This document shows, one piece after another, positions 25,196-32,057 of a stretch of 64,000 nt of DNA. Each line of letters begins with the position of its first letter. Position 1 is the stretch's first letter. A program made the position numbers and the translations under genes. Below the pieces are notes generated by a model, which did no database searches, was not told the origin of the DNA, and worked only from the letters and a program-made list of their open reading frames with translations. The DNA comes from Escherichia phage vB_EcoM_RZ, in sequence record MW598459, one strand, 5' to 3'.

Positions 25196-27256
25196 CTACG
25201 AAAGGAATTTAGGAGGAATAGCTTCCAAATTAATACAACTAGCAAGAATACCAAGACCTTGATTGACTTTCTTCGTTACCCCAGAGGATGCAAACGATGC
25301 AAAGTCAACAGATTCTACTGGCTCTTCTGTTTCCTCGCCCTGATAAACGACAAGCTCACCAGTTTCCATCAACACATCACCATCATAGATAACTGCATTT
25401 TCATCCAGTTGGTCCGTAGTCTGGATATCAGCTTCCAGCATTTTGACGTTCGCGTTTCCTTGATACGAAGCATCAGTAATTTTGGTAATCTTAACTACAG
25501 TCCCACGAGGAAGAATAACTTCCTGCTCGGACGGGTTGCTTGACAATTCCCCAGGAACAATTACGTTAATTAAGTCCGCCCCAGAAATTTTCCAACCAAC
25601 ATGCATCATTACGTGGTCGCGGCGTGCATCCGGCATATCTGGTAAAACAATTTCGTCATCAGCCTGGAAAGATGTCCCATCACGATAGTCCTGATGAACT
25701 GCAGCCATAGCAACGTTCGCCACCCAGCCACCAAAGATAATCGGTTTAAACGACGTTGATACATAGTTCCTGAAATAAAATAATTTAGATTTCTTAATTT
25801 TATCAAATGTAGGAACGTTTAAATATTGACCACGCCAAAGAGTTGTATTAGGCGGCAACTTATGTCCAATTTCAAAGGCCGAATCCAATTCCTTAATTGT
25901 TTCGACAACTCTGTCTAGATTTAGGAATTCAGCTTCTTCTTCATAATATTTGCCCATCAAATAATTATTAATATCGACATAGTTTGCTCCACAATAATCT
26001 GCAATTGCTTCTCGCTGACCATAATGGAAACGGTTGTCAGTATACCCTGCTGTGAAATTAAGAGTATTTTCTGATGCTTCTTCGGCAAAGTCTTTAACTG
26101 CAACACGAATGGCGCTTGTGTATTCTTTTTCCCAGAGCGAGGCTGCATAAGTGGCTGCATCCAGGTTAGGAGGAGCATCATTCATTTTTCTTTCGATAAA
26201 TGCGGCTTTGCGAAGGTTAAGAATCTCTGCACATGATTCGGCAAAAATCTGCATCTGCTTCATACTGCCAACAGGAGCACGTTTAAGTTCACGATGCATA
26301 CGGTTAAAAATTGGGTCAGAGTCTTCAACACGAATTTCTTCTTTCCAAACACCATTTGCTCGCATAGCCTCATCTGCTGCGCGCATACGAGCCATAGTAT
26401 TCGTTTCGGAAGGTCGAACAAAAATTTCCAGTTCTTCATAATCATCGATAAGTTCTGCCGTAGCCGGTCGACTAAACTTAGCAGCTTCTGCATCAATTTC
26501 GTCCCAACCGTCTGGTACGGAATCACTTGGAGCGTACTGGGCTTGCGCAATAGCTCGGCGACTGATTTTAGTTTTCTGGGCAACAGCAGCATCGGTCTTT
26601 TTGTTTGCTGCGTCAATCAGAACTTCGGCTGCGATTTCTTGTTTGGAGACTTGTGCGCCTGTATCTTTATTAGTGAATACATCGCCGACTTTAGTTTCAA
26701 CTTTTTGATATTTCTCAGGGACCGGTGGCATACCATCAACCGAAAGCAGGTCAACACCCTTTTTGTACATAATTACATAAGCGTTCTTTTTACCGAGGCC
26801 AGAAGCATTCGGAAGAACATGATAACGCCCGCTGGTTTTCATTTGAATCAGTCGATTCATAATACGAATAACAGCTTGGTCTTGTCCTTTCATCTTTTTG
26901 GATGGGAAACGGAACAAGACTACATCAGGTTTGCCTAGTTTAATGCTTTCCCAGACTGTAACAAAAATCAGGTTAATTGCATCAAGAGGTTTTTCACCTA
27001 GACCACCCTTCAGAGGAACAGCATGGCCATGTGAAGTCCCGGAGAGCAGGAATACCTCGGCAATTGCATCACCGCGTTTATACTGTTTAACTGTTTCTTT
27101 GCCCGTGAATTGCATCAAACGTGCCATAAGAGAATTGGTCCCAGGAACACCGAATTGCCAAACCTGTGGGACCTTGTATTTTGGATTCATATTAATGACA
27201 GGATAACCGAAGGCTTCGATATATTTGTCAAAGAGTTCATTTAATTGTTCAGACAT
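25196..27256 (-). CDS. alt: Alt ADP-ribosyltransferase
   Basis: 686 aa (T4 Alt is 682 aa); C-terminal ADP-ribosyltransferase signature (YVSTSF... SEQEVILPRG, i.e. STS and ExE motifs); position matches T4. Confidence 0.85.
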   Translation of the reverse strand: MSEQLNELFDKYIEAFGYPVINMNPKYKVPQVWQFGVPGTNSLMARLMQFTGKETVKQYKRGDAIAEVFLLSGTSHGHAVPLKGGLGEKPLDAINLIFVTVWESIKLGKPDVVLFRFPSKKMKGQDQAVIRIMNRLIQMKTSGRYHVLPNASGLGKKNAYVIMYKKGVDLLSVDGMPPVPEKYQKVETKVGDVFTNKDTGAQVSKQEIAAEVLIDAANKKTDAAVAQKTKISRRAIAQAQYAPSDSVPDGWDEIDAEAAKFSRPATAELIDDYEELEIFVRPSETNTMARMRAADEAMRANGVWKEEIRVEDSDPIFNRMHRELKRAPVGSMKQMQIFAESCAEILNLRKAAFIERKMNDAPPNLDAATYAASLWEKEYTSAIRVAVKDFAEEASENTLNFTAGYTDNRFHYGQREAIADYCGANYVDINNYLMGKYYEEEAEFLNLDRVVETIKELDSAFEIGHKLPPNTTLWRGQYLNVPTFDKIKKSKLFYFRNYVSTSFKPIIFGGWVANVAMAAVHQDYRDGTSFQADDEIVLPDMPDARRDHVMMHVGWKISGADLINVIVPGELSSNPSEQEVILPRGTVVKITKITDASYQGNANVKMLEADIQTTDQLDENAVIYDGDVLMETGELVVYQGEETEEPVESVDFASFASSGVTKKVNQGLGILASCINLEAIPPKFLS

Positions 27257-28856: not shown

Positions 28857-29138
28857 TTAGTCGTTGGCTCTATTATATGCCACATCTTCCAAAAGCAAAT
28901 CCAGGCGTTTGTGATAAGTGAACACAAATTTAGTCGACCCATCCGGTTTCATTTTAGTCATGAAGTGAACATAGATAAATCCTTGCTCAACGCATTCACG
29001 CCAAACGGGGTTATCTTTAGCCGGATTAATATCAAACGAGTAATTATGATTCACATGACGAATAAACTGGTTAACATGACCGTAATCCATCGTGGTAGTT
29101 GGACCACGGTCAGAAATAGTATGAACGACAAACATCAA
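28857..29138 (-). CDS. Hypothetical protein (93 aa), 30.1 position
   Basis: ORF with ATGA overlap to the upstream gene. Confidence 0.5.
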   Translation of the reverse strand: MMFVVHTISDRGPTTTMDYGHVNQFIRHVNHNYSFDINPAKDNPVWRECVEQGFIYVHFMTKMKPDGSTKFVFTYHKRLDLLLEDVAYNRAND

Positions 29139-29959
29139 TTACCCCCTTGGCCACCGGTCGGTTGATTGTACCAGTATTCAATACCAGTACCTACACGCTG
29201 GCCATATTGATATGGATATGCTGGATTATATCCAGGAGTCCACGGTTGACCAGGCTGCCAGCCTTGCTGCATTTGTTGTTGAAGGCGTCGAGTTTCACGA
29301 AACAGCTCTTCCAGTTTACGGAGTTCATCTGGAGTGAATTCTGGTTTGACCGGTTCATCTTTGTGTTTCAGTTTAAGCTGTCCAGCAACATCGTCCCAAT
29401 TAAAAACTTTGGAAGCTGTTTTAGGAATAGCATCACGTTCGCCGCGGGCCATCCAATAAACCGGAACCTCAAGAATTTCACTCGCATGGTCGCAATGGTG
29501 TGCAAGGTCATCAATATAACAAATGACATTATATTTGTTTTTTGCCTTCTGAAACAAATCCTCTTTAGAGGCTGTATGACCACACATCATCACTTCTTTA
29601 AACGCTCCAGGGAACAAAGCATTCAGGTTAAATTGACGATTCAAGCGTGCGTCAATGGAATCACCCAGGGCTGTAACAGCCACAAAATCATATTGCTCTT
29701 TGAGGTTATTAATAACCCTTAATGCATCCGCATAAGGAGACAAATAGCGAATAAAGTCTGAACAGTTATATTTTTCAATTAACTGCGCGCCTAACTCTTC
29801 ATCACAATTGAAAAGTTTACCAGGGGTCACAAATTTTTCATCCTGAATCATCTTAAGGATATGTTCCAGGGGTAAATTATATTTTTGGGCGAAATAAGGT
29901 AAGCCAGACTGCCATGACAAACATACGCCATCAATATCTGTTAAAATAACGGGTTTCAT
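29135..29959 (-). CDS. HAD-like hydrolase-fold protein with Q/P/Y/G-rich C-terminal tail
   Basis: 274 aa; N-terminal LTDIDGV (HAD motif I, DxDG), later VTALG and YIDDL motifs; last ~50 residues are low complexity (QQQMQQGWQPGQPWTPGYNPAYPYQYGQ...GGQGGN). Confidence 0.5.
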   Translation of the reverse strand: MKPVILTDIDGVCLSWQSGLPYFAQKYNLPLEHILKMIQDEKFVTPGKLFNCDEELGAQLIEKYNCSDFIRYLSPYADALRVINNLKEQYDFVAVTALGDSIDARLNRQFNLNALFPGAFKEVMMCGHTASKEDLFQKAKNKYNVICYIDDLAHHCDHASEILEVPVYWMARGERDAIPKTASKVFNWDDVAGQLKLKHKDEPVKPEFTPDELRKLEELFRETRRLQQQMQQGWQPGQPWTPGYNPAYPYQYGQRVGTGIEYWYNQPTGGQGGN

Positions 29960-30423
29960 AATGCATCTCTCAATTGGTTAAGTATGTCAATAAATTCTTG
30001 TTCAGTCAATATTGTATCATGAACAGTAAGGTGGCTCGCCATCGAATGCTTTAAAACTTTGCCTTTTGTAGCTTGTAATGCGTCGCGGAATCCTTTGTTT
30101 TGGAGCGCTGCTTCAAAATATGCATTTGTATACAACTCTTTCCATGCTGCAGAGTATCTTGAAAAGGGAATTCCAAGCCAGAAAAGCGTCCCACGGTCCG
30201 CAGCTCTTGCATAAGCTCTTCCACTTTGCTGGGCGGCCAATCCGGACATCCCAAATATACGTTTTTGTTGTTCATGATTTCTCACCTTGCACCCTTGTAG
30301 GAAACCTTCGAGACCTCCAAACTGGATACCCTCCATAACAAAAGGCCATTTGGCAAAGTTACTTAATGCACATGATGGCCACGGGAAATTGCTTCTTATT
30401 TCTAACTCAGACATCTTTGACAC
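29956..30423 (-). CDS. NADAR/YbiA-like domain protein
   Basis: 155 aa; LSNFAKWPF...G..F...E....Q..K pattern resembles the N-terminal motif of E. coli YbiA (FSNFAAWPI...EHYFQAQKF), plus similar downstream helices. Confidence 0.55.
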   Translation of the reverse strand: MSKMSELEIRSNFPWPSCALSNFAKWPFVMEGIQFGGLEGFLQGCKVRNHEQQKRIFGMSGLAAQQSGRAYARAADRGTLFWLGIPFSRYSAAWKELYTNAYFEAALQNKGFRDALQATKGKVLKHSMASHLTVHDTILTEQEFIDILNQLRDAL

Positions 30424-30619
30424 TGATAATATCTACATCAGCCCAATGACCATAACCAGGTAGACGGTCTTTAATAGATAATCCGCCGTCAGATTTCAGC
30501 ATTTTAATTGTTTTAGTATATGGTTCAATATTTCGGGCCCATGGACTTACGTCAGTCACGCGATAAGTAACTTCAACCATTTCTGTTCCCAAAATTTTCT
30601 GAATCAGTTTCTTAAACAC
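30407..30619 (-). CDS. Hypothetical protein (70 aa)
   Basis: Tightly packed early-region ORF on the coding strand. Confidence 0.45.
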   Translation of the reverse strand: MFKKLIQKILGTEMVEVTYRVTDVSPWARNIEPYTKTIKMLKSDGGLSIKDRLPGYGHWADVDIISVKDV

Positions 30620-31987: not shown

Positions 31988-32017
31988 ATTATGCACTGGA
32001 CCAACCCTGTTGTAAAC
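31988..32017 (-). promoter_or_regulatory. Early-type promoter (GTTTACA, 17 nt spacer, CATAAT) with conserved leader
   Basis: Near-identical to the cassettes at 10074-10103 and 48868-48897, including the CATACTGAGTTACACAA leader. Confidence 0.55.
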
Positions 32018-32029
32018 CCCTTTATGGAA

Positions 32030-32057
32030 AATAAAAAAGGGACTCCGAAGAGTCCCT
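32030..32057 (-). terminator. Intrinsic terminator (GGGACTC-CGAA-GAGTCCC plus T-run)
   Basis: 7 bp GC stem with tetraloop followed on the minus strand by TTTTTTATTTT; directly after the 53 aa gene. Confidence 0.7.

Follow-up and report, generated by a model that had tools for sequence, protein, structure and literature searches.

A further full-length allele of adfN (T4 gene 30.3), encoding a probable phage NADAR, in Escherichia phage vB_EcoM_RZ

The window analyzed is a stretch of 64,000 nucleotides from Escherichia phage vB_EcoM_RZ (MW598459). Within it, alt, gene 30 (DNA ligase), 30.1 (DUF3045), 30.2, 30.3 and 30.4 are arranged on the minus strand in the order of T4 and RB69, and beyond 30.4 rIII, gene 31 and cd follow, again in T4 order. 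The closest records were those of Gaprivervirus phages (Tevenvirinae). The following features were assigned; residue numbers are those of the 152-aa product of 30.3.

25196..27256, minus strand: Alt ADP-ribosyltransferase (PF03496, E=3.6e-19), 2.7 kb from adfN
29135..29959, minus strand: gene 30.2, 274 aa, putatively HAD-type phosphatase-like (phrog_420, E=1e-78), with an ATGA overlap with adfN
29956..30414, minus strand: adfN, the T4 gene 30.3 ortholog, CDS of 152 aa plus stop, a predicted phage-type NADAR DNA ADP-ribosylglycohydrolase
29959..30003, minus strand: C-terminal alpha helix, residues 138-152 (helix 138-151 in the model; full T4-like C-terminus in the alignment)
30046..30048, minus strand: codon CAT of His123 in the last beta strand, which marks phage NADARs (invariant in 59 sequences; strand 120-123 in the model)
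30286..30288, minus strand: codon AAG of Lys43, the ADP-ribose-contacting lysine (K43 of T4 AdfN), conserved in T4 and RB69 and aligned with the Lys of YbiA
30307..30309, minus strand: codon GAA of Glu36, the catalytic glutamate (E36 of T4 AdfN), invariant in 59 sequences and aligned with the Glu of YbiA SEHYFQAQK
30407..30619, minus strand: gene 30.4 ortholog, 70 aa (phrog_2042, E=1.9e-34), in the T4/RB69 position, its stop overlapping the adfN start codon
30415..30423, minus strand: three-codon GTG extension in the ORF list, probably untranslated as part of adfN

The ORF list contained a minus-strand ORF of 155 aa with a GTG start at 29956..30423, the one described in an earlier note on this DNA. 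Judged from the sequence, it was confirmed as a real gene and not a chance reading frame, and homologs were found in 1509 phage records by tblastn. Translation most likely begins at the ATG at 30414, which would give a product of 152 rather than 155 aa. This codon shares bases with the stop of gene 30.4 (70 aa), which lies upstream (ATGTCTGA), and the shorter product aligns position by position with gp30.3 of T4, which is also 152 aa long. Based on this overlap and the gapless end-to-end alignment, the gene was placed at 29956..30414. The lengths of gp30.3 homologs in the databases, 150-153 aa, agree with this start. At the other end, the stop of adfN and the ATG of gene 30.2 (274 aa), the next gene downstream, overlap in the sequence ATGA.

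A protein of 100% identity is encoded by the closest relative, Escherichia phage EAWsc9 (PQ341120, 3510..3968), in which no CDS is annotated at this place, and nearly all other records label the gp30.3 homologs as 'hypothetical protein'. Many other full-length alleles are 86-96% identical to the window protein. Many database homologs are fragments of 86-126 aa, and some are fused to PF11097, PF06919 or PF06019, which are families of neighboring genes. Such fragments and fusions suggest that frameshifts or deletions, of which RB69 is an example, are frequent at this locus in T-even relatives.

On the minus strand, a strong terminator-like hairpin (32057-32038; 8-bp stem with five G-C pairs, T-run) follows gene 30.9 and is itself followed by a promoter-like site, TTTACA-17-CATAAT, at 32016-31988. 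Hairpin and promoter-like site (31988..32057) may mark the start of a putative transcription unit from 30.8 to 30. The promoter scan returned 10 promoter-like sites versus a mean of 10.3 by chance, which is no excess, and the operon structure is therefore only suggestive. The annotated T4 30.3' has its counterpart in an internal +1-frame ORF of 74 aa (30051..30275, minus strand). As an overlapping gene this ORF was rejected as probably due to chance: shuffling of synonymous codons reached at least its length in 18% of cases for the window gene and in 6% for T4, and the ORF is interrupted in RB69 and absent from most distant homologs.

Family assignment was carried out with Pfam and by direct comparison to T4. 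The protein matched PF08010 (Phage_30_3) at E=4e-64; the score of 215 bits exceeds the cut-off of 36, and the match spans positions 2-138 of the 138-position model. Identity to T4 gp30.3 was 86% over 152 of 152 residues without gaps, 22 of the 152 positions being different. A Pfam scan of the single protein gave no match to PF08719 (NADAR) at E<=1; gp30.3 proteins have a Pfam family of their own, which accounts for this result. The earlier note had read the protein as a member of the NADAR/YbiA family and had named the Pfam NADAR search as a check. That check came out negative, and taken alone it would have led to a wrong rejection of the reading. Searches with the single protein against the PDB sequences (E<=10) and against NCBIfam returned nothing, and none of the PADLOC models, including DarG, was matched.

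The relationship became visible only with profiles and structural comparison. A profile built from nine gp30.3-family proteins matched E. coli YbiA in the PDB at E=0.0012 (hmmsearch). The family comprised 1390 clusters at 50% identity in an exhaustive HMMER search, and 59 diverse members of these clusters, 30-40% identical to the query, were used for the family alignment. With hhalign, the resulting 59-sequence profile was matched to YbiA across the whole domain (138 columns, 94.2% probability, E=1.1e-7). PF08719 was likewise matched by nine of these 59 members at E<=0.01; conversely, YbiA matched PF08010 at E=0.004 and PF08719 at 1.5e-38. In the structure comparison proposed by the earlier note, the best structural match of the protein was YbiA, which is annotated as an N-glycosidase. 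Membership in the NADAR superfamily is supported by this profile-profile and structural evidence, the homology being remote but consistent. Several gp30.3-family members are 290-480 aa long with 2-3 matched stretches (tandem NADAR domains). In many others the domain is located at the C-terminus of proteins of up to 559 aa, which are multidomain, unlike the core-only phage protein.

The N-terminal NADAR-type motif noted earlier is present (LSNFAKWPFVMEGIQFGGLEGFLQGCK), although its spacing had been written with one position too many: there are three residues between E36 and Q40 instead of four. In the 59-sequence alignment N19, E36, H123 and T137 are invariant, and Q40 is conserved in at least 90% of the sequences. 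E36, Q40 and K43 align with the E, Q and K of YbiA, and the assignment to the NADAR/YbiA superfamily is upheld by these conserved catalytic residues together with the profile-profile match. The AlphaFold model of gp30.3 had a pLDDT of 80.9 and a pTM of 0.78; residues 9-16 were poorly defined (pLDDT <50). The position of H123 is occupied by His in phage NADARs, by Glu in the YbiA family and by Asp in DarG1 (PMC11125620, PMC11543638). In gapless register, L121-K122-H123 stands against L-V-E of YbiA, which is the published equivalence; in the hhalign alignment a gap of one residue is introduced here. The RB69 allele stops at residue 137 through a frameshift, whereas the alignment continues in the window and T4 proteins.

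The T4 ortholog has been studied in detail. T4 30.3 was recognized bioinformatically as a phage NADAR and hydrolyzes guanine-ADPr but not thymine-ADPr in vitro (PMC11125620); cytosine-ADPr is not hydrolyzed either, so that the specificity is for guanine only (PMC12945103). Johannesman et al. traced the resistance of T2 and T4 against DarTG1 to gene 30.3, which they gave the new name adfN, for anti-DarT factor NADAR (PMC11825919). A T4 deletion mutant was sensitive to DarTG1, which makes AdfN necessary in T4, and ectopic AdfN was sufficient for rescue of RB69 (PMC11825919). The purified T4 protein strips ADP-ribose from DarT1-modified DNA and does not bind DarT1 (PMC11825919). The E36A variant was inactive in vitro and gave only partial rescue in vivo, K43A also gave only partial rescue, and a protein cut at the RB69-like end had lower activity, the C-terminal helix being needed for full activity (PMC11825919). 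In uninfected cells T4 AdfN fails to neutralize DarT1 or to replace DarG1, and T5 and Bas25 were barely rescued (PMC11825919); these failures suggest an additional T-even-specific factor or context, and the mechanism described for AdfN is in this respect incomplete.

The window gene shares with T4 adfN the length of 152 aa, E36, K43 and H123, the C-terminal helix and the site between 30.4 and 30.2. The difference consists of the 22 substitutions and of the host genome, which is a Gaprivervirus here and a Tequatrovirus in the case of T4. Family, fold, conserved residues, intact C-terminus and synteny were read in the present analysis; activity and counter-defense are those of the T4 protein as described in the literature, and are carried over to this allele by its 86% identity with T4 AdfN. 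The gene is very probably the Gaprivervirus ortholog of T4 30.3 (adfN), acting by the same mechanism. It is thus an already known gene, AdfN, a phage NADAR, of which a further full-length allele and not a new mechanism was found. The proposal of the earlier note that the product erases DarT-made ADP-ribose adducts as counter-defense is supported by the YbiA profile match, the catalytic residues and the published data on the T4 ortholog (PMC11825919, PMC11125620, PMC12945103).

Comparison to other NADARs places the protein more precisely. RB69 gp30.3 occupies the same locus and is 85% identical over residues 1-137, but the last 15 residues, which form the C-terminal helix, were lost by the frameshift, whereas the window allele is full length; RB69 is DarTG1-sensitive without AdfA (PMC11825919). 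The NADAR clade closest to phage gp30.3 is DarG1 according to Johannesman et al. (PMC11825919). The DarG1 antitoxins (BC4488 family, e.g. Geobacter lovleyi 8bat) share guanine-ADPr hydrolysis with the T4 ortholog. In contrast to them, the window gene is an orphan without an adjacent DarT toxin; its neighbors are 30.4 and 30.2, and the only ADP-ribosyltransferase nearby is Alt. The window protein further differs from DarG1 by His instead of Asp in the last strand and by its core-only architecture (152 aa versus 219 aa in 8bat, without the N-terminal extension), and T4 AdfN is no substitute for DarG1 in uninfected cells.

With E. coli YbiA (PF08719, PDB 2b3w) the motif SNFa.wPf..dG..f.s.E.f.Qa.K is shared. 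YbiA has Glu in its last strand, however, and the window protein with His123 falls outside the YbiA family sensu de Souza and Aravind. In addition, ybiA is a chromosomal gene in a LexA-controlled operon beside dinG, its product is annotated as an N-glycosidase of riboflavin intermediates, and YbiA gives no protection against DarT1 in vivo (PMC11125620). The AdfN proteins of Bas32 and Bas60 are likewise NADARs which are specific for guanine-ADPr and counter DarTG1 (PMC11825919). They belong to other NADAR clades, were acquired independently and need no T-even context, whereas the gp30.3 clade is fully functional only during Tevenvirinae infection.

Several other explanations of the gene were weighed against counter-defense. 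The protein might act as a small-molecule N-glycosidase on soluble ADP-ribose-derived immune signals or, as YbiA, on riboflavin intermediates instead of DNA, and the best structural match, YbiA with its N-glycosidase annotation, is in keeping with this. The experiments on the T4 ortholog, in which ADP-ribose was removed from DNA and DarTG1 was countered, and the replacement of the YbiA-defining last-strand Glu by His make it very unlikely, with room left for a second, additional activity. The chance is smaller still that the phage, like RB69, has an allele that is weakened or inactive and is DarTG1-sensitive in spite of the gene. Shortened gp30.3 products of 89-126 aa, some of them fused to other Pfam families, are indeed common in related phages and metagenomes, and the RB69 allele contains a frameshift, but the window ORF is full length with E36, K43, H123 and the C-terminal helix intact, and it has a 100% identical counterpart in EAWsc9 as well as many full-length alleles at 86-96% identity. 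The earlier note had also considered self-regulation, and an Alt gene about 2.7 kb away, on which this idea was built, was confirmed at the coordinates listed above. According to this explanation the enzyme would reverse ADP-ribosylation or RNAylation by the phage's own Alt, ModA and ModB, and its place near alt, on the same strand, would follow from that. Alt modifies arginine side chains of proteins, whereas the T4 NADAR was active only on guanine-ADPr among the nucleic-acid adducts tried and not on thymine- or cytosine-ADPr; moreover, the gene is fully explained by its DarTG1 phenotype. In other phages 30.3 is located apart from alt, namely in a tRNA cluster of Aeromonas phage 44RR2.8t.2, by genes 47/46 in Vibrio phage QD01 and by a helicase gene in Rhizobium phage RL38J1, and no Alt match was found in the 30.3 loci of these three phages. 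The gene is also away from the ligase block in the Aeromonas, Vibrio and Rhizobium phages. The window Alt is 36% identical to T4 Alt over the full length, and about 36% to RB69 Alt, while identity to T4 is 69% for the ligase and 86% for gp30.3; the low value for Alt beside the high value for gp30.3 indicates that the two are not co-evolving. Alt diverges much faster than its neighbors ligase and gp30.3. Given the guanine specificity and the absence of linkage in several relatives, self-regulation found no support and is highly improbable; the proximity of alt and 30.3, already remarked on by Iyer et al., is attributed to the conserved gene order of the Tevenvirinae.

A related question is whether gp30.2 might be the T-even factor which AdfN is reported to need. 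In the sequence ATGA the end of 30.3 overlaps the start of 30.2, so that the genes are translationally coupled, and the pair is kept in the Tevenvirinae and in the Acinetobacter Twarogvirinae. Adjacency was surveyed by tblastn and in the loci of six distant phages. The two genes adjoin each other in T4 and RB69 as well as in Acinetobacter phage Stupor, and are two genes apart in Citrobacter phage Margaery. In a Vibrio phage, 30.3 lies in another neighborhood and its end is overlapped by a bona fide NT5C gene distinct from 30.2 (PF06941, E=4.7e-12), which also favors a functional link. On the other hand, Klebsiella phage 15882-6 and the Aeromonas phages 44RR2.8t.2 and 31 carry 30.3 and 30.2 at widely separated sites, RB49-like phages have no 30.2 beside 30.3, and the co-occurrence in Straboviridae is explicable by shared descent. 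All four HAD motifs of gp30.2 (D8xD10G, T96, K132, D150D151) were invariant in five homologs, and a weak similarity to NT5C (5'(3')-deoxyribonucleotidases) was detected. A profile of the five homologs retrieved only a 5'(3')-deoxyribonucleotidase from the PDB (E=0.95), hhalign against the Vibrio NT5C aligned only the DxD motif with 25% probability, and a single-sequence AlphaFold model of residues 1-200 was of unusable quality (pLDDT 43). Since the linkage is lineage-restricted, gp30.2 as the partner of AdfN was kept only as a low-probability lead and is unlikely. The C-terminal part of gp30.2, about 80 aa (29135..29380, minus strand), is rich in Q, P, G, Y and W (QQQMQQGWQPGQPWTPGYNPAYPYQYGQ...). 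This tail occurs only in Tevenvirinae homologs, is highly variable among T4, RB69 and the window phage, and is lacking in gp30.2 of the Acinetobacter and Citrobacter phages.

The course of events that fits AdfN-type counter-defense best would be as follows. The gene would encode a minimal, core-only N-glycosidase of the NADAR fold and would probably be expressed in the leftward pre-replicative transcription unit that spans gene 30.8 through the gene for the ligase, with a timing that we infer. Upon infection of a DarTG1 host, the DarT1 toxin would be released, guanines of the phage DNA would be ADP-ribosylated and replication would be blocked. AdfN would then cut the bond between the ribose and guanine N2, so that ADP-ribose is freed, the DNA is unmodified again and the phage replicates. 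The distal ribose and the diphosphate would be held by Glu36 and Lys43, and His123 in the last strand would stand in for the Glu or Asp of other NADARs.

For annotation, PF08010 should be mapped to AdfN/phage NADAR by the pipelines, as a plain Pfam NADAR scan misses the gene. For the biology of the phage, resistance of this Gaprivervirus to abortive-infection systems of the DarTG1 type is predicted, which would be useful in the choice of phages for DarTG1-carrying E. coli hosts.
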